The translations under genes and the position numbers were made by a program. A stretch of 64,000 nucleotides of DNA. Source: Clostridia bacterium (GTDB lineage: Bacteria > Bacillota > Clostridia > TANB77 > UBA1234). Below are positions 597-60,436 of the stretch, one piece after another; positions within the stretch are counted from its first letter, which is position 1, and the number at the start of each line of letters is the position of its first letter. Location of the stretch: positions 30,941 through 94,940 of the forward strand of contig JAFUGE010000008.1 of the NCBI GenBank assembly GCA_017469545.1, in the 5' to 3' direction. Under the pieces are notes generated by a model. The model worked only from the letters and a program-made list of their open reading frames with translations, ran no database searches and was not told the DNA's origin.

Positions 597-622
597 CGGG
601 CAGCGTGGTACACTGCCCCTAC
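597..622. repeat. REP-like GTAG-flanked palindromic element, reverse orientation (CGGGCAGCGTGGTACACTGCCCCTAC)
   Basis: Matches family consensus GTAGGGGCAGCGT-loop-ACGCTGCCCG in reverse complement; intergenic between convergent genes. Confidence 0.7.
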
Positions 623-680: not shown

Positions 681-3155
681 TTATTTCTTGAAATCAATGA
701 TTACAGAATCATTGCTGTTCATATTCGACAAATCAACGGTTGCACCGCTATTATCATTTTTCTTTCTTAGAATGGAAGAATCCACTACGACGTCTACTAC
801 GTTGTCGTCGCTGGATGCCATTCTTTCTTTGTCATTATTTCCAGTAAAAAAGTGTGAATCTGCCTTTGCATTTTCTGAAGCAGAGGAGCTATTGGCGTCT
901 GCATATAGTTGGAAATCGTATTTCGAGCATTTATGCTCTTCATAATATTTCTTATCAATAAAGTCTGCCATACCACGGCCAACGATTGTCTTACCGCCAG
1001 CATTTTTTGTCTTATAAATACATTGTTTGAATTTAAGTCCCACAATCTTGCCAGCCTTGTAATATTCTTCTGGCGCTTTCTTCTCGGCCATTAATGCTTC
1101 CGTTTGTGCCTTAGAACTGTCTGCATCTTTGTCGTCGTAAATCTTCTTTGCACGATATGTCCATTTCTTGTATTTACCAAGTTCGCCTTCCCAGAAAATA
1201 CTTTCTTCGTTCGTCATATCACCAAATAGAATTTGTGTTTTTGTATTGGTAATCACAACGTCTTTAAAATAGGCAAGGGAAGAAGTTTTCGTTAATTGTG
1301 ACAAGTTCTGTATTGTAATTAATGTTCCGCAGCGATACTTTCTAAACAAAGTAAAGAATGCTTCTGTATCTTTGTTGACGTATAGTGGGAACTCGTCAAT
1401 GTAAATGAAGTGTGGCGTTCTTGTGTTTTCGTCGCCAGGTCTTCTAAGCACGGCATCTTTAAATGACAAGATTACAAACATACCAAATGCTTTTTGGTGT
1501 GTTTCACCCAAGTCACCTTGTCTTGTACAAGCGGTGATTATTTCGCCGTTTTGAAGTGCTTTATCTAGGTCAATATTGTTATTTCTGCTACAAAGTACTC
1601 TCTTTACACCAGGATTTCTAAGGAAGTTGTCAAGCTGCGTAATCGCACCATACACGTGCTTTTCCGTCTCTTTTCTGCCGCTACCATAAGTAGAAGCGAT
1701 TTCATATCCGTGGATATTTACTGGTGGTTTATAGAAGTTCTTTTCAAAGTATCCGATTAATGATTTGTAATCTTCAGCAAGCTGAGGGTCTTTTTTCAAG
1801 ACTTCGCACATTTCTTCTGCGATATCAAAGTTATTTAAAATGCTAAGCATATCTTCTAGTGTAGGAATTTCGCCATTATGCATTCTTGGATATACTAGCT
1901 TTAATAGAATTGCCAAATTTTCGAAAGCCTGTTGCGTCACGTTTGCGAAGAAAGCACTGCTCTCGCTATTTTCTGCTTGGTACATTCCTTTTAATACCGT
2001 AGAAATGATAGCTGCAACTTTGGCTGGGTCTTTTCCTGTGAATGGGTTAATACCGTACGAGTTAGGGTCCATCGGGTCGATCACATTAACGTCCATACTG
2101 TAGGCATTTGCTACTTTTCTTACTCTTTCAATACAAGCATTATCAGGCGCAACTAGCGTAAATCCAAGGCCTCTGTAGTAGATTTCGTTTGTTGCTGGGT
2201 CTACGTAGGTAATCATGTCTTTCATGTAGTCTTTGTATTCTTTCATTCTGCTATCTCTTGGCTTTAAGAAGTTAAGAGTAAAGTTTCTGTTTAGGTAGTC
2301 ATTGCTATAAGGAACTGTCATATCTGCAAGGCCTGTTTGCAAAGCGTTGTAGCCAAGCTTTTTGCTTAATTCTCTGAAGAAATACTTTCTTTCGATATCA
2401 TTTGCACACATTGGTTCAACCATGGTAGAAGTTTTACCTGTACCCGTGGCACCTTGAACCATTGTTGCTTCAAATCTTTTCTTTTCTGGAATGAAAACAA
2501 CTTTACCTGTCTTATCGTCCACACAAATTGGTGCATTGCACTCGAAGGCCTCTGGCAATGTATCTTTCTTTTTCTTGAAGCTTAGCTTTGTTCCACCGTA
2601 TTCCTCGAAAGATTCAATCCAATCAGAATCGCCGTCAACCACATTTCCCATATAGTATTTCCATCTTCCTCTGAAAGTAGATACGGGAATAATTAAGGAA
2701 AGTCCAGCAACCGCAGGGGCGATAACCTCTGGCATATTCGTCGCGATATATTTAAAGTTACTTAAGTTCATTAAGCAGAAGTAAATAATTTCATTAGACC
2801 ATTGTGCCGTCATTCCTAGGAATATTCCATAAAAGCATAGGGAGAAGAATACGAAAAACTTCATTGGATGCCTTAGGGTAACATTCATTGGCGAGCCACA
2901 CATAAATTGGAAACCAGCGACACACGCTAAATATGCAAGTGTATATCCGATTGGCGACCAGTATGTAGCAAGCTCTCCCGTAAGAAGTACGCGGAATAGT
3001 TCAGCAACTCTATCTACTGCCAATACGACGCAAATAACGGCAAAGATATATGCGACGTATTCGTTAAGATTCACTTTCATTTTTTCTACTAAAAACCACC
3101 CTAATAGAAACAATATTAGGACAGCTACTAATCCATAAATAATATAGGTTAACAT
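681..3155 (-). CDS. type IV secretion coupling protein-like ATPase (TrwB/TraD/VirD4 family)
   Basis: N-terminal hydrophobic helices, Walker A QGATGTGKTS (TrwB-like GATGTGK), Walker B-like HFIYIDEF, downstream TLITIQNLSQL motif; GGAGG RBS before Met at 3155 (11th codon of the tracked ORF). Confidence 0.5.
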   Translation of the reverse strand: MLTYIIYGLVAVLILFLLGWFLVEKMKVNLNEYVAYIFAVICVVLAVDRVAELFRVLLTGELATYWSPIGYTLAYLACVAGFQFMCGSPMNVTLRHPMKFFVFFSLCFYGIFLGMTAQWSNEIIYFCLMNLSNFKYIATNMPEVIAPAVAGLSLIIPVSTFRGRWKYYMGNVVDGDSDWIESFEEYGGTKLSFKKKKDTLPEAFECNAPICVDDKTGKVVFIPEKKRFEATMVQGATGTGKTSTMVEPMCANDIERKYFFRELSKKLGYNALQTGLADMTVPYSNDYLNRNFTLNFLKPRDSRMKEYKDYMKDMITYVDPATNEIYYRGLGFTLVAPDNACIERVRKVANAYSMDVNVIDPMDPNSYGINPFTGKDPAKVAAIISTVLKGMYQAENSESSAFFANVTQQAFENLAILLKLVYPRMHNGEIPTLEDMLSILNNFDIAEEMCEVLKKDPQLAEDYKSLIGYFEKNFYKPPVNIHGYEIASTYGSGRKETEKHVYGAITQLDNFLRNPGVKRVLCSRNNNIDLDKALQNGEIITACTRQGDLGETHQKAFGMFVILSFKDAVLRRPGDENTRTPHFIYIDEFPLYVNKDTEAFFTLFRKYRCGTLITIQNLSQLTKTSSLAYFKDVVITNTKTQILFGDMTNEESIFWEGELGKYKKWTYRAKKIYDDKDADSSKAQTEALMAEKKAPEEYYKAGKIVGLKFKQCIYKTKNAGGKTIVGRGMADFIDKKYYEEHKCSKYDFQLYADANSSSASENAKADSHFFTGNNDKERMASSDDNVVDVVVDSSILRKKNDNSGATVDLSNMNSNDSVIIDFKK

Positions 3156-3286
3156 GTTTACCTCCATAAGCTTACTTGTTGACAAATCAACACATCTATA
3201 TTATCCTATATTTTGAGGAAAAAAACAAGTCATTTTGCGTAATTTGTTCAAAAAATTATGTAAATATTAGGAAAAGAAAGGTGGAA

Positions 3287-3848
3287 ATGCAAATGATAGT
3301 GGTAGGCCTACGGAAATCCGGGAGAGCAGTACAAAAATACAAGACACAATGTTGGATTTAAAGCAGTGGATAAGATTGCAGAAAAGTTGAATATTGAAGT
3401 GAATAAAGAGAAATTTAGTGGACTTTTTGGGGAAGGAATGTATAATGGCAAGAAAATGATGCTCCTAAAGCCAAGTACATTTATGAACTTAAGCGGAGAG
3501 AGTGTGTGCGAAATCATTAATTTCTATAAAGTGCCGCTATCGGATTTACTTGTCATTTATGACGATATTGATATTGATGTTGGGAAGATTAGAATTAGGC
3601 CGGAGGGCAGCAGTGGCACTCATAATGGTATGAGAAATATTAGTGATATGCTAGGGAGCCATGACTTTGCGAGAATTAGAATTGGTACAGGTAAGCCATT
3701 GGAAGGAATAGATTTGGCGGATTATGTGCTAAGCAATTTCTCGACTGAGGAGAGCAAAGAGATTGATAATGCTGTGAATATGGCGGCGGATGCTGTGCTT
3801 GAAATCATGGATAATGGCGTGGAAAAGGCTATGAATATTTATAATTGA
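3287..3848 (+). pseudogene. pth: peptidyl-tRNA hydrolase with +1 frameshift (extra C at 3311)
   Basis: Frame 1 encodes MQMIVVGL then RKSG.. to stop. Frame 2 continues GNPGEQYKNTRHNVGF..VDKIAEKL..GTHNGMRN..GTGKP (Pth catalytic His region). Deleting c3311 (cta-C-gga) restores MIVVGLGNPGEQY. Confidence 0.75.
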
Positions 3849-3851
3849 AAG

Positions 3852-3877
3852 GTAGGGGCAGCGTATCACGCTGCCCG
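3852..3877. repeat. REP-like element GTAGGGGCAGCGTATCACGCTGCCCG
   Basis: Exact family consensus; 9-bp stem GGGCAGCGT/ACGCTGCCC; between pth and rng. Confidence 0.8.
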
Positions 3878-3896
3878 TAAAAGGTGGTGTAATAAA

Positions 3897-5051
3897 TTGC
3901 AAAACGTAATCATTAATCAAACAAATGACGAGACGTCGGTATACATTTTAGAAAATAATAAGCTGTGTGAAATGTATTGCTACAGAAAGGACATAGAGAG
4001 TACTTTAGGCAATATATACAATGGAAAAGTGACAGATATTGTGAATGGCATGCAGGCGGCGTTTATTAATTTGGGGCTAGAAAGAAATGCCTTTATTTCC
4101 GTGAAAGATGCTTTGAAAAAAGTGGATGTGGCGAAAGAAGAGCAAGATACCAATCTTAAAATGTCGGATGTATTGAAAGTGGGCCAAAATGTGCTAGTTC
4201 AGGTAAAGAAAGAACCGACGGACGGCAAGGGAGCCAGAGTTTCGACACATATTACTTTGCCAGGGAAATATATTGTTTTGATGCCGGGAACGGATATTTT
4301 GACGGTTTCACAAAAAATAGAGGACGAAGCAGAGCGTGAGAGGCTAAAGCAGATTATTAGCCGTGTGTTACCGGGAGAGTTTGGGGCGATTATTAGAACA
4401 GACGCCATAAATGCTAGTGAAGAGGCGCTTACAAGTGATGTAGCTAGTTTATTTGATAGCTGGAATGATATTTTGGAGAAGGCCTCTCAAAGTGACGATG
4501 TTGGCATTTTATATGACGATCACGATATCGTAGAAAGAACGATTAGAGACGCTATTAATCAGAATACACAGAAGGTATATGTAAATAGTGAAGTGGTGTA
4601 CTCAAGAGTATGTAGCGCTTTAGGGGACGAGAGATGTATTTTAGATAAAGACGCTGATTTGGTTTCGAAATTTGGATTAGAGGCGGAGATTGCCAGGGTA
4701 CAAAATCGAAAGGTTTATTTAAATTGTGGTGGACATATTGTGATTGACAAGACCGAGGCGCTGACGGCTATTGATGTGAATTCGGGGAAATATACGGGCT
4801 CTAAGGACTTGGAGAGTACGACTTTGAAAGTGAATTTGGAAGCGGCCACAGAGATAATGAGACAAATCAGGCTGAAGGATATTGGTGGAATTGTGGTTGT
4901 GGATTTTATCGATATGCATACCGAGGAAAATAAGAATAAAATCATTGAATTAATGAGAAAAGAAGCGAAAAAGGACAGAAGCAAGGTGGACGTGAGAGAC
5001 TTTACGCAGCTTAATTTAGTGGAACTTACTAGGAAGAAGATGTATGTGTGA
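3897..5051 (+). CDS. Rne/Rng-family ribonuclease (RNase G-like), C-terminally short
   Basis: S1 domain GNIYNGKVTDIVNGMQAAFINLG; catalytic region TEALTAIDVNSGKYTG and DIGGIVVVDFIDM; TTG start. Confidence 0.6.
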   Translation: MQNVIINQTNDETSVYILENNKLCEMYCYRKDIESTLGNIYNGKVTDIVNGMQAAFINLGLERNAFISVKDALKKVDVAKEEQDTNLKMSDVLKVGQNVLVQVKKEPTDGKGARVSTHITLPGKYIVLMPGTDILTVSQKIEDEAERERLKQIISRVLPGEFGAIIRTDAINASEEALTSDVASLFDSWNDILEKASQSDDVGILYDDHDIVERTIRDAINQNTQKVYVNSEVVYSRVCSALGDERCILDKDADLVSKFGLEAEIARVQNRKVYLNCGGHIVIDKTEALTAIDVNSGKYTGSKDLESTTLKVNLEAATEIMRQIRLKDIGGIVVVDFIDMHTEENKNKIIELMRKEAKKDRSKVDVRDFTQLNLVELTRKKMYV

Positions 5052-6327: not shown

Positions 6328-6352
6328 GTAGGGGCAGCGTATCACGCTGCCC
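6328..6352. repeat. REP-like element
   Basis: GTAGGGGCAGCGTATCACGCTGCCC followed by ATTTTG; immediately after rpmA stop. Confidence 0.8.
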
Positions 6353-7729: not shown

Positions 7730-7755
7730 GTAGGGGCAGCGTAATACGCTGCCCG
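7730..7755. repeat. REP-like element GTAGGGGCAGCGTAATACGCTGCCCG
   Basis: Family consensus with AAT loop. Confidence 0.8.
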
Positions 7756-8291: not shown

Positions 8292-8366
8292 GTAGGGGGT
8301 AGCGGAATATGCTGCCTGTTTCTATATCGAAATTTTTTTGCGGGCAGCGTGTTACGCTGCCCCTAC
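8292..8366. repeat. inverted doublet of REP-like elements (BIME-like)
   Basis: Degenerate forward copy GTAGGGGGTAGCGGAATATGCTGCC (8292-8316), 24-bp spacer, reverse copy CGGGCAGCGTGTTACGCTGCCCCTAC (8341-8366). Confidence 0.7.
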
Positions 8367-8438
8367 AAATTTTTTATTGTAATATTTCATATGATTGTAT
8401 ATAATGTTCCTAAGAGAGAAAAACAAAGGAGAGGGAAA

Positions 8439-9533
8439 ATGAACATACTGCTTGTAACCATGAGCATGCAAATCGGGGGAGCGGAGACTCACGTATTAGA
8501 GCTTGCTAAAGGCTTAAAGAGGCTTGGCTATACGGTTTATGTGATGTCGAATGGCGGAGATTATGTGCAAGAATTAGAAGCAAATCAAATCGAACATATT
8601 AAGGCTCCAATGCATAATAGAAAAATAGGCAATATGCTAAAATCATATCGAATTTTAAAGCAAACTATCAAGGAAAAACAAATTTCTGTGGTTCACGCGC
8701 ATGCGAGAATTCCGGCAATGATTGCGGGTTATGCCTGCAAGGTGACCCGCACTCCGTTTGTGACAACGGCGCACGGAGTATACAAAGTAAATCCTGTTTT
8801 GAAGCTTTTGACAAGCTGGGGTGAAAGAACGATTGCCGTGAGCGAAGATGTGAAGGAATATGTGATTAAGGAATACGGCATAAAAGAAGAAAATGTTTCT
8901 GTGACAGTTAATGGCATTGATATGAATAAGTTCCAGAAAGGAACGGATTACGCACGCCTTGAGGCAGAGTTCTCACAAGAGAAAGAGAAGAAGAAAATTG
9001 TGCACGTTAGCCGCTTAGATAAAGAGACTTCAATGGTGGCTCATTCGCTTATTTCGCTTGCGGAGAATTTAGAGGGAATCCAAGTAGTCATTGCGGGAGG
9101 TGGCAACGAGTTTGACGCTTTGAATGCTGAGGCACAGGAAGTAAACGCAAAGCTTGGTGCTCAAAGAGTGATTATGGCCGGCCCAAGAACAGACATTAAT
9201 CAATTTGCGGCTTTGGCAGACATTTTTGTAGGAGTAAGCAGGGCGGCACTGGAGGCCATGGCAAGCGAAAAGCCTGTGATTTTAGCAGGAAATCAAGGGT
9301 ATTTAGGAATATTCGACGAGTCTATTTTAGATAAGGCTTTGGAGACGAATTTCTGCTGTAGAGGATTTGAATTGCCGAGCAGTGAAAAAATAGAGAGGGA
9401 CTTGAAAAAGCTACTAAATGGTAGTGAACAATCCCTTGCAGAAATGGGTAAGTATAACCGTGAAACAGTAAAAAAATATTATTCTTTAGAGAGAATGATT
9501 GGCGACGCCGTGAAAATGTATGAAAGCGTATAA
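8439..9533 (+). CDS. glycosyltransferase family 4 (GT-B fold)
   Basis: MNILLVTMSMQIGGAETHVLELAKGL N-terminal GT4 signature; tracked ORF start at 8349 reads through the REP doublet and is spurious. Confidence 0.7.
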   Translation: MNILLVTMSMQIGGAETHVLELAKGLKRLGYTVYVMSNGGDYVQELEANQIEHIKAPMHNRKIGNMLKSYRILKQTIKEKQISVVHAHARIPAMIAGYACKVTRTPFVTTAHGVYKVNPVLKLLTSWGERTIAVSEDVKEYVIKEYGIKEENVSVTVNGIDMNKFQKGTDYARLEAEFSQEKEKKKIVHVSRLDKETSMVAHSLISLAENLEGIQVVIAGGGNEFDALNAEAQEVNAKLGAQRVIMAGPRTDINQFAALADIFVGVSRAALEAMASEKPVILAGNQGYLGIFDESILDKALETNFCCRGFELPSSEKIERDLKKLLNGSEQSLAEMGKYNRETVKKYYSLERMIGDAVKMYESV

Positions 9534-9551
9534 ATTTTCTGTAAAAATATG

Positions 9552-9615
9552 TTGACAAAAACGAACCTTGGTGGTAGAATTAACTAGCAAACCGCGTAAA
9601 GGTTCTTTTTTTTTG
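9552..9615 (+). promoter_or_regulatory. sigma-A promoter for rpmG-secE-nusG embedded in a hairpin plus T-run
   Basis: TTGACA (9552-9557), 17 bp, TAGAAT (9575-9580); GAACCTT (9563-9569) pairs with AAGGTTC (9600-9606) followed by T9. Confidence 0.45.
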
Positions 9616-9661
9616 AATGCAAAAAGCGGGAAAGCCTTGAGGCGTTACGGAGGTGTAAGAA

Positions 9662-9811
9662 ATGAGAGATAAGATTACATTAGCTTGTACTGAGTGTCAA
9701 CAAAGAAATTATGACTCTAAAAAGAATAAGAAAAATGACCCAGACAGACTAGAAATGAAAAAATATTGCAAATTCTGTAAGAAACATACAGTACATAAGG
9801 AAACAAAATAG
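9662..9811 (+). CDS. rpmG: 50S ribosomal protein L33
   Basis: [49 protein letters not shown], 49 aa, below the ORF-track size cutoff. Confidence 0.8.
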
Positions 9812-9858
9812 TTTCAGTGGGCTACATGTTTGAGAATTGGACAAATTAGAGAAAAGGT

Positions 9859-10077
9859 GTGGTGAATATGCCAGAAGTAGAAAATAAACCTAAAAAAGGC
9901 TTTTTCCAAAGTATGAGAGCCGAACTTAAAAAAGTGATTTGGCCATCTGCATCGCAAACTGCAAAGAGCACAGGCGCTACAATCGCGTTTGTATTATTAA
10001 TTGCTTTAATACTAATTGTGCTAAACTTTGCTTTTCAAGCGTTAGATTCACTTTGGTGGAATACAATTATTAAATAA
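9859..10077 (+). CDS. secE: preprotein translocase subunit SecE
   Basis: Small protein with single C-terminal TM helix, between rpmG and nusG; true start may be ATG 9868. Confidence 0.7.
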   Translation: MVNMPEVENKPKKGFFQSMRAELKKVIWPSASQTAKSTGATIAFVLLIALILIVLNFAFQALDSLWWNTIIK

Positions 10078-10089
10078 AGGAGGAGTAAA

Positions 10090-10632
10090 ATGCCTCAAAA
10101 TAATGATACAAATACTACGGAAGTTGCAAGATGGTATGTTGCGCATACTTATTCAGGATATGAAAACAAGGTAAAAGATACTCTTGAGAAATCTGTTGAA
10201 AACAGAAATATGCAGGATCTTATCCAAGAAGTTGTTATTCCAATGGAAGAGCAAATTGAGATAAAGGATGGCAAGAAGAAAACTACCTTGAAGAAAGTAT
10301 TTCCAGGCTATGTGCTAATTAAAATGATTATGACGGAAGAGTCATGGTATGTAGTAAGAAATATTAGAGGGTTAACTGGATTTGTTGGCGCTGAGGGCAA
10401 ACCTGTGCCACTTACTGACGAAGAGATTAGGAATATGGGATTTGAAGAAATGCCTGTTAATATCGACTATGAGGTTGGGGACTCTGTAAAAGTTGTTTCT
10501 GGCCCATTGGAGAGCTTCGTTGGCGTAGTTGAAGAGATTAATATGGAAAAATCGAAAGTAAGAGTTTTAGTATCTATGTTTGGAAGAGAAACTCCTGTAG
10601 AACTAGAATTTTCACAAATACAGAAAACATAA
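10090..10632 (+). CDS. nusG: transcription antiterminator NusG
   Basis: NGN domain WYVAHTYSGYENKV, KOW domain GDSVKVVSGPLESFVGVV. Confidence 0.9.
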   Translation: MPQNNDTNTTEVARWYVAHTYSGYENKVKDTLEKSVENRNMQDLIQEVVIPMEEQIEIKDGKKKTTLKKVFPGYVLIKMIMTEESWYVVRNIRGLTGFVGAEGKPVPLTDEEIRNMGFEEMPVNIDYEVGDSVKVVSGPLESFVGVVEEINMEKSKVRVLVSMFGRETPVELEFSQIQKT

Positions 10633-10648
10633 GTAGGAGGTGTTTAAA

Positions 10649-11077
10649 GTGGCAGAGAAGAAGGATGTAACAATTATAAAATTGCAAATTCCAGCTGGTA
10701 AAGCGACTCCAGCTCCACCAGTAGGACCAGCACTTGGTTCAAGTGGTATCAATATTATGCAATTCGTAAAAGAGTTTAACGACAGAACAGCAGATCAAGC
10801 TGGTATGACAATCCCAGTTGTAATCACTGTTAATAAGGATAAGTCTTTTTCATTCATAACAAAGGTTCCACCAGTTGCTGACTTACTATTAAAGGCTGCT
10901 AAAATCGAGAAAGGTTCTGCAAAACCTAACAGAGATAAAGTAGCTACAGTAACAAAAGCTACTGTTGAGGAAATTGCAAAAACAAAGATGCAAGATTTAA
11001 ATGCAGGAAGTTTAGAAGCTGCAATGAGTATGGTTAAAGGTACAGCTCGTTCTATGGGCATTGTTGTAGCTGAATAA
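10649..11077 (+). CDS. rplK: 50S ribosomal protein L11
   Basis: [21 protein letters not shown]; GTG start 10649 with AGGAGG RBS 10635-10640. Confidence 0.9.
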
Positions 11078-11124
11078 TTTATTGATGGGAGGCTTAAAAG
11101 CCGTTAGTACCAAAGGAGGAAAAA

Positions 11125-11805
11125 ATGAGAAGAGGAAAGAAATATCAAGATAGCGTTAAAATGATTGATAAGACAGCATCTTATGATTCAAAAGCAGCGC
11201 TAGAATTAATCGAAAAAATGCCAAAGGCTAAATTTGACGAAACTGTTGAAGCTCATTTTAGACTAGGTGTTGATTCAAAACACGCTGATCAACAAGTTAG
11301 AGGCGTTATCGTATTACCTCATGGAACAGGTAAGACACAAAGAGTTTTAGTATTTGCAAAGGGAGAGAAGGCTAAAGAGGCTGAGGCTGCCGGTGCAGAT
11401 TTTGTTGGAGCTGAAGATTTAGTTCCAAGAATTGAGAAAGAGAACTGGTTCGATTACGATGTAATCGTAGCTACACCAGATATGATGGGTATCATTGGTA
11501 GATTAGGTAAAGTTTTAGGACCAAAAGGTTTAATGCCTAACCCAAAATCAGGAACAGTTACAATGGATGTTGCCAAAGCTGTTAGCGAGATTAAATCTGG
11601 TAAGATTGAATATCGTTTAGACAAAAACAACATTATCCATTGCCCAATTGGAAAGCTTTCTTTCGGCGCTGAGAAGTTAAATGATAACTTCCAAGCTTTA
11701 TACGAAGCAATCGTTAAAGCAAAACCAGCTGCTGCAAAGGGACAATACATTAAGAGTATGTCTTTATCAAGCACAATGGGCCCTGGCGTTCCAGTAAAAG
11801 CTTAA
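11125..11805 (+). CDS. rplA: 50S ribosomal protein L1
   Basis: MRRGKKYQ..., position after rplK. Confidence 0.9.
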
Positions 11806-12047
11806 TAACCAAAGACAGTAGGTTGCAAATGTTTGCATAAAATATTCCTACCGAGGTAAAGGATCGGATTTTATCCAAGACATTTATTTCGGTGGAATAG
11901 ATGTCTTGGATTTTTTTGTAGGGGCGGTGTAATACGCCGCCCGCGGGTAGCGTACTACGCTACCCCTACAATGAATTTGGGCGCCCGGAGGGTGACCAAC
12001 GGACAGCCTACCACAATGATGGATTATCAATAAGAGGAGGTGTAAAA
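11806..12047 (+). promoter_or_regulatory. rplJ leader region with hairpins and an embedded REP doublet
   Basis: Hairpin CCAAGACAT...ATGTCTTGG (11877-11910) plus REP doublet 11918-11969, in the position of the L10(L12)4 autoregulatory leader. Confidence 0.3.
11918..11969. repeat. inverted doublet of REP-like elements with compensatory stem variants
   Basis: GTAGGGGCGGTGTAATACGCCGCCCG + CGGGTAGCGTACTACGCTACCCCTAC; each stem carries paired compensatory substitutions relative to consensus. Confidence 0.75.
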
Positions 12048-12551
12048 ATGCCAAACGCAAAAGTTTTAGCGCAAAAGCAAAATGACGTAGCAGCATTAAA
12101 AGAAAAATTCGAAAAATCTAAATTAGTGATTTTAACAGACTATAGAGGAATTAACGTAGCTGATATTACAAAGATTAGAGCTGACTTAAGAAATGCTAAC
12201 TGTGAATATCAAGTTGCGAAAAACTCTACTTTAAAATTTGCTGCAAAAGAAGCAAATTTAGAGGGATTAACAGAAATACTAGAAGGCCCTACAGCTGTCA
12301 CATTTAGCTATGAGGATTACGTAGAGCCAGCAAAAGTTTTATATAACTATGCGAAAGATTCAGAGTTTTATAAAATTAAAGGCGGAGTAATGGATGGTAA
12401 GATTATTTCAGTTGACGAAGTTTTGAAACTTGCAAAACTTCCATCAAGAGAAATGCTACTTACTCAACTTGCTACTGCATTGCTTGCTAATATTAGAAAC
12501 TTAGCTGTTGTTCTTGATCAGACTAGGGAGAAGTTAGAAGAAAATGCATAG
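12048..12551 (+). CDS. rplJ: 50S ribosomal protein L10
   Basis: Typical L10 sequence and position. Confidence 0.9.
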   Translation: MPNAKVLAQKQNDVAALKEKFEKSKLVILTDYRGINVADITKIRADLRNANCEYQVAKNSTLKFAAKEANLEGLTEILEGPTAVTFSYEDYVEPAKVLYNYAKDSEFYKIKGGVMDGKIISVDEVLKLAKLPSREMLLTQLATALLANIRNLAVVLDQTREKLEENA

Positions 12552-12677
12552 AGAAACGCGTGATAAGCAGCAATTTGCTGCGTCAAATGAATTTCGAGTG
12601 TCCTCAACGTGCCAGCGCACGCCTCCGGTACTCTCGATTCATTTTCCTTGCAACTTACTACTTCTGACGCGTTTCTC
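12551..12677. repeat. 127-bp intergenic element with perfect 10-bp terminal inverted repeats GAGAAACGCG/CGCGTTTCTC
   Basis: Abuts rplJ TAG stop; internal hairpin GCAGCAATTTGCTGC; enlarges the rplJ-rplL spacer to 185 bp. Confidence 0.45.
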
Positions 12678-12736
12678 GGAGGTAAATTTTAGTAGGTGCG
12701 AGATATGAAATTTAAATTAAAAAGGAGATTATTAAA

Positions 12737-13108
12737 ATGGAAAAAATCGAAAATTTATTAGCTGAAATCGAAAAACTTACAGTTTTAGAATTAGCTGACT
12801 TAGTAAAAGCAATTGAGGACAAATTTGGTGTATCTGCAGCCGCTGCTGCAGTTGTAGCTGCTGCTCCAGGTGCTGGCGCTGCTGCTGCTGAAGAAAAGAC
12901 TTCTTTCAACGTAGTATTGAAAGAGGCTGGCGCTAACAAGATCGCTGTTATCAAAGTTGTTAGAGAAGTTACAGGATTAGGATTAAAAGAAGCTAAAGAC
13001 TTAGTTGATGGCGCTCCTAAGACAGTAAAAGAGAACGCTTCTAAAGAAGATGCTGAGAAAATGAAAGCAGACTTAGAAGGTGCTGGAGCAGTTGTTGAAT
13101 TACAATAA
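12737..13108 (+). CDS. rplL: 50S ribosomal protein L7/L12
   Basis: [33 protein letters not shown], Ala-rich hinge. Confidence 0.9.
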
Positions 13109-13122
13109 TTGAATCAAATATT

Positions 13123-13158
13123 GTATGGGCAGCGTATTACGCTGCCCGCTTTTTTTAT
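13123..13158 (+). terminator. REP-like hairpin (GTATGGGCAGCGTATTACGCTGCCCG) + T-run as rplL terminator
   Basis: Family hairpin followed by CTTTTTTTAT. Confidence 0.75.
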
Positions 13159-13212
13159 CCGCTTTTTCTTGATTTTGACTATGCGTAATGATAAAATGAA
13201 TAGCGTAAGGAA

Positions 13213-15783
13213 GTGATTTTTGTGGAAGAATTGACGCCTATGATGAAGCAATATATGGAGGTAAAAAATCAATATCAAGATTGTATTTTGATGTATCGTT
13301 TAGGCGATTTTTTTGAGATGTTTTTTGACGATGCGATTACGGCGTCGAGAGAATTGGAATTGACACTTACTGGCAGAGACTGTGGCTTAGCGGAGAGAGC
13401 ACCAATGTGTGGTGTGCCTCACCATGCGATTCAAAGCTATTTGGCGAAGCTTGTGTCCAAGGGATATAAAGTCGCTGTTTGTGAGCAGATGGAAGATCCT
13501 GCGCTTGCAAAGGGCATCGTGAAAAGAGAGGTAATCAGAGTTGTTACGCCTGGCACAGTCATTGAATCGAATATGCTAGACGAGAAGAAAAACAACTATA
13601 TTGCGGCAATTTATAGAATGGGAATATATTATGGGTTGGCCTATTCTGACGTTTCCACGGGCGAGTTTGCTACGACGGAGATTGTAGAGGGTAACAACTA
13701 TAACAAACTTTTAAATGAACTTGCAAGATTTGAACCGGCCGAGATTGTGGTGAACGAAGAACTTTTTGGTGATGCGACAACGATGGAAGAAATCAAAGAA
13801 AGATTTAAAACATATATTACTCCTGCAAGTCCAGAAAACAAAGTAGAGGTAAACGTCGAGCTTCCTAGGGCTATCGAGAAATTGGTATACGCAAAAGAAG
13901 CGACGAATATGCTTCTTTCGTATATCAAAGAAACACAAAAAATTGATATGAAGCATATCAACAATATCGAGATTTATGAGATTAATCAATACATGGTATT
14001 GGATGGGACAGCAAGAAAAAATTTAGAATTAACAGAGACGTTACGTGACAAAAACAAGAGAGGAAGCTTACTTGGTGTGTTAGATAAAACTTCTACCTCT
14101 ATGGGTGGCAGATTGCTTAGAAAGTGGATTGAGAAGCCTTTAATGAATACCCAAGACATCCACCAAAGGCTACTTGGGGTAAAAGAGCTTAAGGATGCCG
14201 TTATGGTAAGAGGCGAAATGCGAGAAGTTTTGAAGAAAGTTTATGATATTGAACGCCTTACTGGTAAAGTGGCTTATGGCACGGTAAATGCTAGAGATTT
14301 AATCGCCCTTAAAAATTCTTTATCACAACTACCAGAGGTAAAGAAGCTAATTGAGGGCTCGAACGCAGAAATACTAACAAGCCTTAATACGCAAATGGAC
14401 CTACTAGAGGACGTTGTACAGCTAATTGACGATGCGATTGTTGAAGACCCACCAGTTTTAATCAAGGAGGGGGGCATCATTAAATCCTCGTACGACGAAA
14501 ATGTAGATAAACTAAGAACTGCCGCTACGGAAGGGAAGAATTGGATTCTTGCATTGGAGGCCAAAGAGAGAGAAGAAACGGGCATTAAAAATTTGAAGGT
14601 TGGATTTAATAAAGTTTTTGGCTATTACATTGAAGTAACAAAGAGCAATATTCCATTCGTACCAGATCGATATATCAGAAAGCAGACACTAACCAATGGC
14701 GAAAGGTATATTACCAACGAGTTAAAAGATATAGAAGATACGATTCTTGGCGCGCAAGAAAAAGTGGTAAATTTGGAGTACGAAATATTTTTAGGTGTTA
14801 GGGATAAAATTGCAGCACAAATCAAGAGATTGCAGCAGACGAGTAATGCTGTTGCTACACTAGATGTGCTTGCGACTTTGGCGGAAGTGGCTGATAAAAA
14901 TGATTATGTGATGCCAGAAGTGGACGAGTCAGAGGAGATTATCATTAAAGATGGCAGACATGCTGTAGTGGAAAGTTTAATTCCAAGTGGTAGTTTTGTA
15001 CCGAATGATACAACACTAAATACAGGCGAAGATAGGGTAAATATCATTACAGGCCCTAATATGGCTGGTAAATCGACGTATATGAGGCAAGTGGCACTGA
15101 TTGTGCTTATGGCACAAATGGGAAGCTTTGTCCCAGCGAGCTTTGCCAAGATTGGAATTGTCGATAGGATTTTTACGAGAATTGGTGCGTCGGACGATTT
15201 ATCGACAGGGCAGTCTACGTTTATGGTTGAAATGAATGAGGTTTCTAACATTTTGATTAATGCGAATAAGAAGAGTTTATTAATTTTGGACGAGATTGGT
15301 AGAGGAACTTCTACATTTGATGGACTTTCTATTGCCTGGTCTGTGATTGAATACATTAGTGAGAAGGTTGCGGCGAGGACCTTGTTTGCAACGCATTATC
15401 ACGAGCTTACAGATTTAGAAGATAAAATGGAAGGAATCAAAAATTATTGTATCGCTGTCAAAGAAAAAGGCGAGGATGTCATTTTCCTTCGTAAAATTAT
15501 TCGTGGTGGGGCAGACGAGAGTTATGGTGTACATGTTGCCAAACTTGCTGGAATACCAAATGCAGTAACCAATAGAGCAAACCAGATTTTAAAGCAGTTA
15601 AAAGAAAGCAATGTGATTAATACCAGCGAGAAGCCTAGTAAGAAAATGAGCAATGTGCAAGAAGTAGATTTATTTAATTATCGATTGGCGGAAATCGCGA
15701 GTGAGCTAGATAAAATTGATGTGAATGCATTGACGCCAATTGAGGCACTAAATACACTGTCAAAATTGAAAATGAAACTGTAG
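13213..15783 (+). CDS. mutS: DNA mismatch repair protein MutS
   Basis: TPMMKQYMEVKNQY N-terminus, Walker A GPNMAGKST, full length 856 aa; start may be GTG 13222 or ATG 13240. Confidence 0.9.
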   Translation: MIFVEELTPMMKQYMEVKNQYQDCILMYRLGDFFEMFFDDAITASRELELTLTGRDCGLAERAPMCGVPHHAIQSYLAKLVSKGYKVAVCEQMEDPALAKGIVKREVIRVVTPGTVIESNMLDEKKNNYIAAIYRMGIYYGLAYSDVSTGEFATTEIVEGNNYNKLLNELARFEPAEIVVNEELFGDATTMEEIKERFKTYITPASPENKVEVNVELPRAIEKLVYAKEATNMLLSYIKETQKIDMKHINNIEIYEINQYMVLDGTARKNLELTETLRDKNKRGSLLGVLDKTSTSMGGRLLRKWIEKPLMNTQDIHQRLLGVKELKDAVMVRGEMREVLKKVYDIERLTGKVAYGTVNARDLIALKNSLSQLPEVKKLIEGSNAEILTSLNTQMDLLEDVVQLIDDAIVEDPPVLIKEGGIIKSSYDENVDKLRTAATEGKNWILALEAKEREETGIKNLKVGFNKVFGYYIEVTKSNIPFVPDRYIRKQTLTNGERYITNELKDIEDTILGAQEKVVNLEYEIFLGVRDKIAAQIKRLQQTSNAVATLDVLATLAEVADKNDYVMPEVDESEEIIIKDGRHAVVESLIPSGSFVPNDTTLNTGEDRVNIITGPNMAGKSTYMRQVALIVLMAQMGSFVPASFAKIGIVDRIFTRIGASDDLSTGQSTFMVEMNEVSNILINANKKSLLILDEIGRGTSTFDGLSIAWSVIEYISEKVAARTLFATHYHELTDLEDKMEGIKNYCIAVKEKGEDVIFLRKIIRGGADESYGVHVAKLAGIPNAVTNRANQILKQLKESNVINTSEKPSKKMSNVQEVDLFNYRLAEIASELDKIDVNALTPIEALNTLSKLKMKL

Positions 15784-15908
15784 GAAACGAATGAAAATCG
15801 GCATCTCGCTGTGTCACTGCGATTGTTTGCGGTGCTCGACGTACCATATGTACGACTCCGCTCCGCACAATCTGGTTCCTTGCGATATACCAATTTTGCT
15901 TCGTTTCT
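15783..15908. repeat. 126-bp intergenic element with GGAAACGAA/TTCGTTTC termini, related to 12551-12677
   Basis: Abuts mutS TAG stop; shares termini, length and a TTCCTTGC motif ~33 nt from the 3' end with the rplJ-rplL element. Confidence 0.4.
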
Positions 15909-15917
15909 GTAAAAAAT

Positions 15918-15969
15918 GTAGGGGCAGCGTATTACGCTGCCCGCTGGCGGCATGCTATGCCGCCCCTAC
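15918..15969. repeat. REP doublet: consensus copy + variant hairpin GGCGGCATGCTATGCCGCC ending CCCCTAC
   Basis: GTAGGGGCAGCGTATTACGCTGCCCG then CTGGCGGCATGCTATGCCGCCCCTAC; second stem entirely different sequence but same architecture. Confidence 0.75.
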
Positions 15970-15991
15970 AAAAGAAAGGAGATAAAACCAA

Positions 15992-17986
15992 ATGGGTTCT
16001 ATTGTGCTTTTGGACGATTTAACGATTAACAAAATAGCGGCTGGTGAAGTAATTGAAAGGCCGGCCAATGTCGTAAAAGAATTAGTGGAGAATTCGATTG
16101 ATGCCGGTGCTACTTCTATTTCGGTGGAGATAGAAAATGGCGGCATTACCTATATTAGAATTACGGACAATGGAAAAGGCATTAGCCCCGACGACGTAGA
16201 AATTGCTTTTGAAAGGCATGCTACTAGCAAGATTAGAAAAGCAGCTGACTTGGTAAAAGTATCTACGATGGGCTTTCGAGGTGAGGCATTGGCAAGTATT
16301 GCCGCCATTGCAAAGGTGGAGCTGATTAGTAGAACGGCCGATAGCGAGCTTGGTACAAGAATTGTAGTAGAAGGCGGCAAAACGATTCTTATAGAAGAAT
16401 GCGGCGCGCCTGTAGGGACGACAATTACAGTCAAAGAATTATTCTTCAATACGCCTGTCCGTTATAAATTCTTAAAAAGAGATTTTACAGAGGGAGGATA
16501 TATTGAAGACGCTGTTTCCAGAATTGCGCTTATTAATCCAAACATCTCTTTTAAAATGACGAACAACAAAAAAGAAATTTTGAGGACGAGTGGAAATGGC
16601 GATATTGCGGCAGTAGTGTATAGCATTTATGGAAAAGACATTGCACAGAATTTGATAGACGTAGAATACGATTATGAGGGAATAAAAATTACTGGTGTCA
16701 CTGGAAAGCCTGAAATTGCCCGCTCTAACAGAGCAAATCAATTATTCTATATCAACGGAAGATATATCAAAGATAAAATTTTATCGGCTGCGGCAGAGGA
16801 AGCATACAGAACTTTGATACCACATGGAAAGTATGGATTTTGTATTTTAAATGTGCAAATGAATCCAGAATTAGTTGACGTGAATGTGCACCCGGCCAAA
16901 TTAGAAGTGCGTTTTTCAGAAGAGGGGAAAGTTTTTAAAGCCGTTAATGGCGCACTAAAAACAGCCTTATTAAAGCAAGATATTACTTCTGAAGCCACTG
17001 TGCCGGGCGGCGAAAGTGAAAAAGAAGAAAAGAAAGAAGAGACATTTACAAAGACAGAACATTCCAAAGGACTATTTGATATTTTTAGACCAAGGCCTGT
17101 TGAAAAGAGAGATAATGTGATTGTAGCAGACTTCGGTAATAGAGTAGAGGAAGAAAAAGAAGCGTATCATGCTGCACCGAAATCGGAAAGCTTAGTCGAT
17201 GAACTATTCACGAATAGTTCGGAGGCTAACTATCAAGATGGTGATAGTTCGGCAGCTAACTATCAAGCGAATGAAAATTCAAAAGAAGGAAATGCTGCTA
17301 CTGAGAGTGCGGAAATGAATCAGACTGTGGAAGAGAAGCCTGTGGAAATGTCGAAAAAATCACAGCAGATGTTTGAAGATATTGCCATAATAGAAGAGAA
17401 AGCAAAAGTACCTGAATACAAAATATTAGGTGTCGCTTTTTTAACATACATCTTTTTGCAACTTGAAAATGATGTCTATATTATTGATCAACACGCGGCA
17501 CATGAAAGAGTATTATTTGAAAAAGTAAAAGAGAACTTTTACAAAAATGGTGGAAAGGAAGCACAAATGCTACTTTTGCCAGATATTATTGAGCTATCAA
17601 AGCACGACATGCGTACTGTAAGGGAGCATATGGATTTATTCCAAAATGCTGGATTTGAGATAGAGGAATTTGGCGACAACACAATCCGAATTACGAGTGT
17701 GCCTTCTATTTGTTTTGAAATGGATACCAGAACTTTGTTTATGGATATTCTAGATGGATTTGATATTACGAATAGAACGACGAAGCAAGAAGTAGAGCAA
17801 AAATTCCTTGCAACTGTAGCTTGCAAAGCGGCCATCAAAGCGGGGATGCATATTGAGGAAAGAGAAATAAGGGGATTATTAGACCAATTATTGGTTTTGG
17901 AAAATCCTTTCACATGTCCACATGGCAGACCAACAGCAATTAGAATTACGAGGGCGGAGATAGAGAAGAAGTTTAAACGAAGATAA
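15992..17986 (+). CDS. mutL: DNA mismatch repair protein MutL
   Basis: N-terminal GHKL ATPase IAAGEVIERPANVVKELVENSIDAG; C-terminal dimerisation domain. Confidence 0.9.
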   Translation: MGSIVLLDDLTINKIAAGEVIERPANVVKELVENSIDAGATSISVEIENGGITYIRITDNGKGISPDDVEIAFERHATSKIRKAADLVKVSTMGFRGEALASIAAIAKVELISRTADSELGTRIVVEGGKTILIEECGAPVGTTITVKELFFNTPVRYKFLKRDFTEGGYIEDAVSRIALINPNISFKMTNNKKEILRTSGNGDIAAVVYSIYGKDIAQNLIDVEYDYEGIKITGVTGKPEIARSNRANQLFYINGRYIKDKILSAAAEEAYRTLIPHGKYGFCILNVQMNPELVDVNVHPAKLEVRFSEEGKVFKAVNGALKTALLKQDITSEATVPGGESEKEEKKEETFTKTEHSKGLFDIFRPRPVEKRDNVIVADFGNRVEEEKEAYHAAPKSESLVDELFTNSSEANYQDGDSSAANYQANENSKEGNAATESAEMNQTVEEKPVEMSKKSQQMFEDIAIIEEKAKVPEYKILGVAFLTYIFLQLENDVYIIDQHAAHERVLFEKVKENFYKNGGKEAQMLLLPDIIELSKHDMRTVREHMDLFQNAGFEIEEFGDNTIRITSVPSICFEMDTRTLFMDILDGFDITNRTTKQEVEQKFLATVACKAAIKAGMHIEEREIRGLLDQLLVLENPFTCPHGRPTAIRITRAEIEKKFKRR

Positions 17987-18017
17987 CTGATTGAAAAATA
18001 AAATGAGATAAAAAAAT

Positions 18018-18043
18018 GTAGGGGCAGCGTAATACGCTGCCCG
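18018..18043. repeat. REP-like element
   Basis: GTAGGGGCAGCGTAATACGCTGCCCG. Confidence 0.8.
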
Positions 18044-22239: not shown

Positions 22240-22265
22240 GTAGGGGCAGCGTACTACGCTGCCCG
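22240..22265. repeat. REP-like element
   Basis: GTAGGGGCAGCGTACTACGCTGCCCG. Confidence 0.8.
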
Positions 22266-25203: not shown

Positions 25204-25231
25204 TTGCATTTTTCTGAAAATGTGTTATAAT
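25204..25231 (+). promoter_or_regulatory. candidate promoter for the large ncRNA
   Basis: TTGCAT, 16-bp spacer, TGT-TATAAT extended -10. Confidence 0.4.
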
Positions 25232-25237
25232 AACAAG

Positions 25238-25810
25238 TAGTGGTGTGCTATTCTAGTGATTGCTATGGATTGCGAGGACGGGCCTAAAAATCCGTTGAAA
25301 GGGCATATCGATGAAGTTCTTTAGTTTGGCTCGCGACGCCCAGTCGAGGGTCTCTCTAGGGAGTAAGGTTTAAGGGCGATCTGCAATGGCATGTAGGCGT
25401 TGACCCTTCTACCGTGGAGACACTTCAGTGCGAGCAAAATTTCGCCTGAAGTGATAAACCTGCAAGGCTAATATATTTTGCAAAAAATATTCGTTAGTAC
25501 ACAGTGTAGCTTTCCTTGAGTGAGAATGGCGAATTGCAAATGAAACCATTGTTGCAAAAGAGGATAAACAATCATTTTAGCGATACCGAGGAAATCTCCT
25601 AGAGCATTCTATTAAGAGATGCATTGAGGATTGAAGTGTGGACTAAGTGGTAATCTAGGCTCTTTACCGGCGACGTAAAGATGCTGCCTTTAAAGGGAAA
25701 CCGCTAAGATGGCGATATCTTAGGAGGCAGTAGGGAAATCCTTCTAGACCTAAGCCGCAAAATTTACTTGATGCATTGCCACTACTATTTTTTTAAAATA
25801 ATTGATGGAG
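25238..25810 (+). ncRNA. ole: candidate OLE (ornate large extremophilic) RNA
   Basis: ~575-nt non-coding, stop-rich, GC-enriched structured region immediately upstream of a small 4-TM protein gene, near spoIIIA; assignment by context and size only. Confidence 0.4.
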
Positions 25811-25814
25811 ATTG

Positions 25815-25840
25815 CGGGCAGCGTGGTACGCTGCCCCTAC
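25815..25840. repeat. REP-like element, reverse orientation
   Basis: CGGGCAGCGTGGTACGCTGCCCCTAC. Confidence 0.8.
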
Positions 25841-27173: not shown

Positions 27174-27229
27174 AATAACCCAAGGGGGGCCAAGGGGGAT
27201 GTCCCCCTTGGGTTATTCTTGTCTTTTTT
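27173..27229 (+). terminator. strong rho-independent terminator
   Basis: AATAACCCAAGGGGGG ... CCCCCTTGGGTTATT stem followed by TCTTTTTTT. Confidence 0.8.
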
Positions 27230-39857: not shown

Positions 39858-39883
39858 GTAGGGGCAGCGTATCACGCTGCCCG
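39858..39883. repeat. REP-like element (exact consensus)
   Basis: GTAGGGGCAGCGTATCACGCTGCCCG. Confidence 0.8.
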
Positions 39884-45671: not shown

Positions 45672-45700
45672 GTAGGGGCAGCGTAATACGCTGCCCTTTT
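45672..45700 (+). terminator. REP-like hairpin + TTTT
   Basis: GTAGGGGCAGCGTAATACGCTGCCC followed by TTTT. Confidence 0.7.
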
Positions 45701-47526: not shown

Positions 47527-47559
47527 TTTAGGGTCAGCGTGATACGCTGACCCTAAAAT
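47527..47559. repeat. REP-like variant, fully symmetric (TTTTAGGGTCAGCGTGATACGCTGACCCTAAAA)
   Basis: Compensatory GGGTCAGCGT/ACGCTGACCC stem; sits between convergent genes. Confidence 0.7.
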
Positions 47560-53483: not shown

Positions 53484-53520
53484 AACTGGCTGTGTAAATT
53501 AATCTGTGAAAAAATATTTG

Positions 53521-53546
53521 TAGGGGTCGGCCTCTGGACGACCCGA
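53521..53546. repeat. REP-like variant GTAGGGGTCGGCCTCTGGACGACCCG
   Basis: Same GTAGG...CCCG frame with different compensatory stem GGGTCG/CGACCC. Confidence 0.65.
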
Positions 53547-54226: not shown

Positions 54227-54251
54227 GGGTCGCATATTATGCGACCCCTAC
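54227..54251. repeat. REP-like variant, reverse orientation (GGGTCGCATATTATGCGACCCCTAC)
   Basis: Compensatory stem GGGTCGCAT/ATGCGACCC with CCTAC flank. Confidence 0.65.
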
Positions 54252-55823: not shown

Positions 55824-56576
55824 ATGTTAAATCAATTTTCAAGAACAGAATTGTTGATAGGTAAAGAGGCATTAGAGAAACTAAGTAATGCAAAGGTTGC
55901 CGTTGTTGGAATCGGAGGAGTTGGCTCTTATGTAGTGGAGGGCTTGGTCCGCGCTGGAGTAGGAAATTTTGTGTTAGTGGACGACGATAAGGTTTGCCTT
56001 ACGAATTTAAATAGACAGCTAATTGCTACGAGGAAGACGGTTGGAAAGTATAAAGTGGAAATGGCAAAGGAAAGAATTTTAGAGATAAATCCAAAGGCGA
56101 ATGTGGAAACTTTTCAGGAATTTTTCTTGCCGGAGACCGAAGGAATTATTGACGAGAGTGTGGATTACATTGTGGATGCGGTGGATACCGTTACGGCAAA
56201 AATCGAACTTGTGATGAGAGCGAATAAGCTTCATATTCCGATTATTTCTTGTATGGGTACGGGCAACAAATTAGACCCTACCAGATTTGAGGTAACAGAT
56301 ATTTTTAAAACAAGTGTATGTCCACTTGCTAAAGTAATGCGAAAGGAATTAAGGACGAGAGGAATCAAGCATTTAAAAGTGTTGTATTCCAAAGAGGAAC
56401 CGATAAAACCTGACGAGACTTTGGAATGCAGCTGTAAGACGGGCTGTATCTGCCCTCCTGGAACGGTCAGAAAATGTACGCAGAGAAACCAAGTGCCGGG
56501 AAGTATTTCTTTTGTGCCATCCGTTGCCGGATTAATCATTAGTGGCGAAGTAATTAAAGATATTATCAATCTGTAG
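55824..56576 (+). CDS. tcdA: tRNA threonylcarbamoyladenosine dehydratase (TcdA/CsdL, ThiF/MoeB family), copy 1
   Basis: Rossmann VAVVGIGGVGSYVVEGLVRAGVGNFVLVDDDKVCLTNLNRQ; stop codon TAG lies inside GTAG of the following REP. Confidence 0.75.
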   Translation: MLNQFSRTELLIGKEALEKLSNAKVAVVGIGGVGSYVVEGLVRAGVGNFVLVDDDKVCLTNLNRQLIATRKTVGKYKVEMAKERILEINPKANVETFQEFFLPETEGIIDESVDYIVDAVDTVTAKIELVMRANKLHIPIISCMGTGNKLDPTRFEVTDIFKTSVCPLAKVMRKELRTRGIKHLKVLYSKEEPIKPDETLECSCKTGCICPPGTVRKCTQRNQVPGSISFVPSVAGLIISGEVIKDIINL

Positions 56577-56598
56577 GGTCAGCGTAGCACGCTGACCG
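56573..56598. repeat. REP-like variant GTAGGGTCAGCGTAGCACGCTGACCG
   Basis: Compensatory GGGTCAGCGT/ACGCTGACC stem; overlaps tcdA-1 stop. Confidence 0.75.
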
Positions 56599-57507: not shown

Positions 57508-57533
57508 TGTAGGGGCAGCGTATCACGCTGCCC
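57508..57533. repeat. REP-like element (exact consensus)
   Basis: GTAGGGGCAGCGTATCACGCTGCCCG. Confidence 0.8.
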
Positions 57534-60414: not shown

Positions 60415-60436
60415 GGGCAGCGTATCACGCTGCCCG
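60411..60436. repeat. REP-like element (exact consensus) overlapping tcdA-2 stop
   Basis: GTAGGGGCAGCGTATCACGCTGCCCG. Confidence 0.8.

Follow-up and report, generated by a model that had tools for sequence, protein, structure and literature searches.

Outward-facing heterodimers of a GTAG-type REP family in an uncultured Clostridia bacterium

To our knowledge, systems of repetitive extragenic palindromes (REPs) and REP-associated tyrosine transposases (RAYTs, or TnpA_REP) have been studied almost entirely in Proteobacteria. In Escherichia coli, REPs or palindromic units (PUs) of types Y and Z are combined with the linker motifs L, S, A and B into bacterial interspersed mosaic elements (BIMEs), which bind integration host factor (IHF) and DNA gyrase. 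Here we analyzed three composite repeat elements in a stretch of 64,000 nucleotides from a Clostridia bacterium (GenBank assembly GCA_017469545.1, contig JAFUGE010000008.1, positions 30,941 to 94,940; this whole stretch is the window below) and compared them with the closest described systems. Dimers of GTAG REPs have been surveyed by Di Nocera et al. (2013, PMC3733652), who distinguish head-to-head (HH; GTAG outside), tail-to-tail (TT), and head-to-tail (HT) forms, which can be homo- or heterodimers, have spacers of 1–5 or 20–100 bp, and are most commonly HH. In REPtrons of TnpA_REP subclass 2.4 (Quentin et al. 2018, PMC6006769), the canonical REP has three G-C pairs at the bottom of its stem, and "double-foot" GTAG...CTAC forms could come from an inverted dimer via a central deletion. 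REP doublets forming hairpins (REPINs), described from Pseudomonas and Enterobacteria, are inverted REP pairs tied to a RAYT that is present in one copy and inherited vertically (Bertels and Rainey 2011, PMC3116915). Finally, the TnpA_REP of Stenotrophomonas maltophilia, whose REP of 23 nt has a perfect 8-bp stem and a 3-nt loop, requires GTAG for cleavage in vitro, is impaired by stem mismatches, and selects only the first loop base (PMC8266576).

The three composites are HH (GTAG-outward) heterodimers of GTAG REPs and belong to the BIME/REPIN class only in the broad sense; they are a new example of an already-known class, in a lineage without prior description, and reveal no new element type. 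The repeat unit is 25 nt long and consists of GTAG followed by GGGCAGCGT-ANN-ACGCTGCCC, that is, a perfect G/C-rich stem of 9 bp with a loop of 3 nt, and it commonly has GC directly 3' (most singlets end ...CCCGC). Folded as DNA, the unit reaches −12.4 kcal/mol (z = −7.1). A scan of the window with the consensus, allowing ≤3 mismatches, gave 17 matches against 0.00 expected, two of which are self-matches of the palindrome on the reverse strand, so that 15 near-consensus copies remain, and GTAGGGG occurs 20 times against 1.7 expected. When the window was extended to 80 kb with neighboring pieces of the same metagenome scaffold (ENA ERZ28654170, 265 kb), 26 REP copies were counted (∼1 per 3 kb), all 26 intergenic, 17 on the plus strand, and typically 3–30 nt past a stop codon and 20–75 nt ahead of the next start. 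The repeat thus has the tetranucleotide 5' of a hairpin, the short G/C-rich palindrome, and the high-copy, dispersed, extragenic distribution of a GTAG-type REP. The host scaffold has 36% G+C, a GC skew that is strongly positive throughout, and almost every gene on the plus strand; it carries the spoIIIA operon, bofA, and an OLE (ornate large extremophilic) RNA, and its host is a spore-forming, uncultured member of the Clostridia. The exact consensus had no match among 185,579 GTDB species genomes and none in the viral contigs scanned, was matched in only 13 short metagenome contigs, and has no Rfam family.

The repeats resemble the GTAG REPs surveyed by Di Nocera et al. (PMC3733652) in having GTAG at the foot of a G/C-rich hairpin, in occurring as singlets and dimers with HH favored, and in their partner spacing classes, heterodimers, post-coding location, and TAG stop codons supplied by GTAG. 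However, the host here belongs to the Clostridia, and that survey mentions no Firmicutes or Clostridia. The three G-C pairs at the bottom of the stem are also those of subclass 2.4 (PMC6006769), an assignment made through common features and not from a tree. The geometry is nearly equal to that of the S. maltophilia REP (PMC8266576), although the stem sequence and the host phylum are different.

A preliminary description, made from the sequence of the window, had reported the three composites, and all three read as described at the positions listed in Table 1. Each is an inverted pair, a plus-strand copy followed by a minus-strand copy with GTAG outward, and spacers of 24, 2, and 3 nt place them within the broad definition of a REP dimer or BIME (inverted, ≤150 nt apart). 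In doublet 2, GC stands between the two 25-nt cores and each arm has its own compensated stem, as had been claimed; the GC is in effect common to the two 27-nt units of this pair, given that ...CCCGC is also the end of most singlets. In contrast, the right-hand hairpin of doublet 3 is not the unrelated sequence that it had been taken for. It retains GTAGGGGC and the REP scaffold, is two compensated base-pair swaps (A-T to G-C and G-C to A-T) from the consensus, and is therefore a REP variant, with GTAGGGGCGG common to this hairpin (15946-15969) and the left arm of doublet 2. Folded as single strands, doublets 2 and 3 form a GTAGG/CCTAC closing stem that encloses two separate hairpins, whereas doublet 1 forms one long hairpin, arm against arm; Z-scores of the doublet folds are about −6. 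All three pairs are unchanged in a 99.93%-identical contig (L001) from the source metagenome. The only structural differences between that contig and the window are small length changes at 12720-12774 (rplJ-rplL spacer region) and 27182-27219 (after a SleB-like gene), neither of them at a REP.

We next compared the arrangement with a null model in which the 26 copies of the 80-kb stretch were placed at random in intergenic DNA and their orientations were shuffled. Pairs ≤30 nt apart numbered 4 against 1.9 expected (P = 0.10), GTAG-outward pairs 3 against 0.44 (P = 0.007), and GTAG-outward pairs ≤5 nt apart 2 against 0.10 (P = 0.004). The outward orientation and the tight packing are non-random, whereas proximity by itself is not significant. 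The pairs could in principle be chance neighbors, left where many REPs are crowded into few short intergenic spacers, and the lack of enrichment of close pairs per se, the unrelated variants that make up the arms, and the differing linkers are all as independent events would leave them. We nevertheless regard this explanation as very unlikely: all three pairs run plus then minus, although 17 of the 26 copies lie on the plus strand, two are packed within 2–3 nt, the pairs account for three of the minus-strand copies, of which the window has six and the 80 kb nine, and a relative with 84% MutS identity has a pair at the same mutS-mutL site.

The preliminary description had likened the GTAG...CTAC-bounded cassettes to E. 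coli BIMEs. This holds for the broad class of REP dimers, BIMEs, and REPINs (PMC3733652, PMC6006769), and REPs of alternating orientation do form intergenic composites here as they do in E. coli, but the likeness fails in the strict sense. There is no common linker motif or length (24, 2, and 3 nt), the stem is short and perfect without a bulge, no arm type is fixed to an orientation (left arms: degenerate, CGGTG, consensus; right arms: consensus, TAGCG, CGGCAT), and a blastn search of 5,426 E. coli genomes (20,395 records) returned no match. As in REPINs (PMC3116915), each element is an inverted REP pair, and doublet 1 can fold as one long hairpin, whereas doublets 2 and 3 form two hairpins. 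The doublets might be REPINs in which the inverted pair folds as one hairpin and is copied by the RAYT, the singlets being decayed halves, much as most singlets in Pseudomonas are remnants of HH dimers (PMC3733652, PMC3116915); the outward-GTAG geometry is also that of the pair flanking a RAYT relic near the window (see below). In the 80 kb examined, however, there is neither a population of near-identical doublets nor a conserved spacer, and intact singlets dominate. No arms or linker are common among the three pairs, all 18 pairs at Clostridia-like loci are heterodimers, and doublets 2 and 3 favor two separate hairpins. In addition, the window has 15 singlet sites against 3 pairs, and the singlets are the best conserved copies, one of them across species, which is the opposite of what decayed remnants would look like. 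We therefore consider the REPIN explanation unlikely.

The preliminary description had further proposed that the ends and the hairpin geometry, and not the stem sequence, are what is selected, of which half is right. We assembled 35 units (18 distinct sequences) from the scaffold and from 13 metagenome contigs with the same repeat. GTAGGG was invariant in all 18 distinct units (separately, the copy at 13123 has a GTAT head), and double changes were found at 5 of the 9 stem pairs across variants; likewise, the mutL-side arm of doublet 3 has another stem in the relative L016 but the same CCCCTAC end and flank. All of this favors the ends and the geometry. Against selection on the ends only, the main-family stem is identical in every copy except 598-622, and the copy in the pth-rng spacer (3852) is kept at 24 of 25 positions in a REP-bearing relative (L010) although the flanking sequence, over window positions −951..4328, is only 72–80% identical. 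Because of this near-invariance and the conservation of the pth-rng copy, we conclude that the stem sequence is constrained as well, as expected if each REP variant co-evolves with its cognate transposase (PMC8266576). In the main family and its close variants, the first base of the loop is A throughout, whereas loop bases 2–3 vary freely, and the overall pattern of constraint (GTAG, perfect stem, first loop base) is the same as that of the S. maltophilia REP.

Comparison of orthologous loci, as suggested by the preliminary description, revealed differences in presence and absence: the sites at 18018, 22240, 11918-11969, and 598 are each empty in a relative. In L016, whose MutS is 84% identical, sites 18018 and 22240 are empty, although the terminator neighboring 22240 is conserved. 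Two further relatives (L018 and L019; 79% and 75% identical) have no REPs in 22 kb, and their rplA-rplJ spacer is without the ∼100-nt insertion that holds doublet 2 in the window. In L010, a terminator hairpin stands in place of the REP at the site orthologous to 598. REP copies have thus been gained or lost, and at some sites they are retained better than their flanks. Pairs also recur beyond the window, with more HH, TT, and HT pairs in the contigs of REP-bearing relatives and at other Clostridia RAYT loci; the Clostridia-like loci hold 8 HH pairs (spacers 2–61 nt), 4 TT, and 6 HT, without exception heterodimers. Singlets at these loci are oriented along the flanking genes in a ratio of 19:3. 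Within the insertion at the rplA-rplJ spacer (region 11791-12047), doublet 2 accounts for 52 nt, and the remainder (11970-12015) ends in CCTAC. The final base of the L10 leader match is also where doublet 2 begins, directly after the terminator-like hairpin of the leader and its T-run.

The mutS-mutL spacer of L016 carries an HH heterodimer of its own, GTAGGGGTCGGCCTCTGGACGACC and GGGTCGTCGGGGACGCCGACCCCTAC separated by a 22-nt spacer, which was found with a hairpin search allowing one stem mismatch. The right arm of this pair and the hairpin 15946-15969 are equally far from the mutL ribosome-binding site and both have the CCCCTAC end, but their stems differ (GGCGGCAT... in the window versus GGGTCGTCG... 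in L016). From this comparison, outward-GTAG pairs might act as fixed "sockets" whose hairpin is swapped in situ, a suggestion that we think rather doubtful. If it were true, with RAYTs replacing the REP body between the GTAG and CTAC boundaries of a resident site, the evolution of REP families would involve conversion at stable loci in addition to insertion and loss, and heterodimers would be the visible product of exchange. Also at this locus, mutS in the window ends ...CTGTAGG, its stop codon (15781-15783) being the TAG of GTAG, and this end can be aligned with the GTAG of the REP in which the L016 mutS terminates.

The same scaffold holds a RAYT relic 1.0–1.5 kb left of window position 1 (L023 4632-5097, minus strand). 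The relic is 415 bp long and lies between two inverted copies of the variant GTAGGGGTCGGCGTCCTCGACGACCCG, whose GTAG ends point outward. It retains the N-terminus and a Tyr-containing C-terminus; because its HuH segment is deleted and its frame is broken, it is a pseudogene. The C-terminal Tyr region matches NCBIfam REP_Tyr_transpos (NF047646) at E = 4e-11 and 43 bits, which is below the 80-bit cutoff because the relic is a fragment. We found 1,028 homologues, several of them named RayT by JGI, and full-length ones have 160–190 amino acids with both the HuH motif and the Tyr region. Many of the homologues lie on contigs of ∼900 nt. Among intact homologues in other Clostridia, the gene order spo0A-RAYT-hypothetical-peptidase M19 is conserved in two species. 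RAYT genes themselves contain REPs: one locus (L024 9906-10299) has one REP upstream and a second, inverted REP in frame after the HuH motif, and another (L031 10134-10310) has both REPs in frame. We also compared 80 RAYT loci (L035-L114) from named genomes that represent many phyla. In 72 of them the gene contains GT[AG]G hairpins, with the frame intact in 71; these hairpins often lie on either side of the HuH-coding part and are translated into peptides such as GSSRTPTPT, VGVGVPDDP, and CRGGVPPPP. In-frame REPs inside RAYT genes have already been published for TnpA_REP subclass 2.4 (Quentin et al. 2018, PMC6006769). In contrast to subclass 2.4 REPtrons, what is present near the window is only the HuH-deleted relic with another REP variant on its flanks, and scaffold positions 8361-88227 contain no RAYT. 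A RAYT cognate to the amplified REP was sought with synthetic RAYT queries whose loops were REP translations (e.g. VGAAYHAA, GQRDTLPLH), and no such loop was present among the proteins listed. Several of the REPs dispersed in L024 correspond to in-frame REP peptides from other RAYTs, e.g. VGAGLVPAQ and VGANCVRPQ.

The position of the copies, 3–30 nt after stop codons within operons, would also suit hairpins kept for an RNA or transcription job independent of a transposase (a barrier at mRNA 3' ends, a processing site, or a terminator), with pairs as stronger versions. Such roles of REPs are documented elsewhere (PMC3733652), the 19:3 orientation of singlets along flanking genes agrees with them, and the copy at 13123 has a T7 tail after rplL. 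Nevertheless, the hairpin is nearly symmetric, and RNA folding leaves the strand-specific GTAG and loop base 1 unexplained. Most copies have no T-run, and gene direction is confounded with replication direction: a GC skew test of transcription versus replication orientation offered one discriminating case, the two directions coinciding. Moreover, the copies are dispensable because orthologous sites are empty in relatives with otherwise the same operons. Overall, an RNA job as the reason for the hairpins appears improbable to us. The hypothesis that REPs are terminators was rejected, since terminator-like matches were not enriched (17 versus 13.3 expected) and only the 13123 copy was convincing.

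We think it probable, by analogy with described systems, that the composites are HH heterodimers of a GTAG REP family whose copies are substrates of a cognate RAYT and whose pairs arise locally. The RAYT would bind the folded single-stranded hairpin with GTAG as a guide and would cut and rejoin the DNA alongside. Singlets would be the main stable form in this genome, and a pair could form locally when a second REP is joined beside a resident one or when DNA between inverted REPs is lost, a loss that the deleted RAYT relic may illustrate; with such local formation, each pair would therefore have different arms and a different linker. The hairpins would be transcribed within operon mRNAs and may gain secondary uses, one copy being terminator-like. 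Several points weigh against this reading. The mechanism is an analogy with enzymes known from E. coli, S. maltophilia, and Marinomonas, the 80 kb of this genome that could be read yielded no intact RAYT, and the sole RAYT relic is flanked by the variant GTCGGCG... and not by the amplified GCAGCG.... With only three pairs, the statistics are thin. The set used for covariation required ≥8 of 9 paired positions, so that its "percent paired" is circular and only the double changes are informative, and hairpin-templated repair without selection can also give compensated changes in palindromes. Finally, the 19:3 co-orientation with genes hints at an RNA-level constraint that a DNA model does not need.

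Table 1. Arms of the three REP pairs and other REP copies in the window
Feature	Position	Strand	Remarks
Doublet 1 left arm	8292-8317	+	degenerate REP GTAGGGGGTAGCGGAATATGCTGCCT; one extra G, several substitutions; folds against right arm
Doublet 1 linker	8318-8341		24 nt, AT-rich, absent from the other two doublets
Doublet 1 right arm	8342-8366	-	near-consensus REP GTAGGGGCAGCGTAACACGCTGCCC; 2 mismatches, both in loop
Doublet 2 left arm	11918-11942	+	REP variant GTAGGGGCGGTGTAATACGCCGCCC; begins exactly at end of L10 leader match
Doublet 2 right arm	11945-11969	-	REP variant GTAGGGGTAGCGTAGTACGCTACCC
Doublet 3 left arm	15918-15942	+	consensus REP, 0 mismatches; followed by 3-nt GCT
Doublet 3 right arm	15946-15969	-	REP variant GTAGGGGCGGCATAGCATGCCGCC, stem 8 bp
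Singlet REP	598-622	-	convergent spacer, adjoining minus-strand gene; single G.T wobble in stem
Singlet REP	3852-3876	+	3 nt past pth stop codon (pth-rng spacer)
Singlet REP	6328-6352	+	after rpmA
Singlet REP	7730-7754	+	after obg
Singlet REP, GTAT head (not GTAG)	13123-13147	+	after rplL; followed by GC + T7 (to 13158); terminator-shaped
Singlet REP	18018-18042	+	between mutL and miaA
Singlet REP	22240-22264	+	upstream of ruvA
Singlet REP	25816-25840	-	18 nt after OLE RNA; 179-aa gene next
Singlet REP	39858-39882	+	consensus scan
Singlet REP	45672-45696	+	consensus scan
Second-subfamily REP GTAGGGGTCGGCCTCTGGACGACCC	53520-53545	+	subfamily also in L009, L014, L016
REP variant GTAGGGGTCGCATAATATGCGACCC	54227-54251	-	variant scan
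REP variant GTAGGGTCAGCGTAGCACGCTGACC	56573-56597	+	its TAG is the stop codon of a ThiF-family gene
Singlet REP	57509-57533	+	consensus scan
Singlet REP	60411-60435	+	its TAG is the stop codon of a second ThiF-family gene

As shown in Table 1, the other REPs in the window stand as singlets, and the two stop codons that lie inside a REP GTAG (56574-56576 and 60412-60414) belong to ThiF-family paralogues. The OLE RNA was found at 25224-25798 with 414 bits. Right of the window (L022; equivalent to 71461-71519), the divergent spacer that precedes rpoB contains two minus-strand REP variants in tandem, an HT pair with 7 nt between its members, which lies upstream of a GTPase gene on the minus strand. 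A symmetric hairpin in a convergent spacer (TTAGGGTCAGCGTGATACGCTGACCCTAA, 47528-47556) resembles a "double-foot" REP whose GTAG/CTAC feet have turned into TTAG/CTAA. In addition, a second intergenic repeat family of ∼115 nt is present at 15787-15904 and 12557-12671 in the window, at 7582-7698 in L019, and in L014 and L008. It is strongly structured (−41.6 kcal/mol) around a central GTACCATATGTAC palindrome, takes up what is left of the mutS-mutL spacer, and has related sequence between rplJ and rplL. Yet another hairpin repeat, GTACCGGCGCACAGCGTGCGCCAC, which lacks GTAGGG, occurs in L003, L005, L014, and L015 and adjoins REPs in metagenome contigs of a REP-bearing relative. A Logan contig of 2,128 nt (L002), equal to window 15915-18042, runs from 3 nt ahead of one REP to the final base of another, which suggests that short-read assemblies break at REPs.

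Overall, the GTAG REP family of the window and its surroundings is dense and well preserved, and it comes with dimers, with a RAYT relic, and with orthologous sites that show gain or loss as well as long-term retention. For annotators, these REPs are worth recognizing because they break short-read assemblies, supply stop codons, and in one case lie as a pair inside the rplJ leader region. For the family, the data set suits two questions, namely which of the two, singlet or pair, replicates as the unit and whether REPs are swapped in situ.

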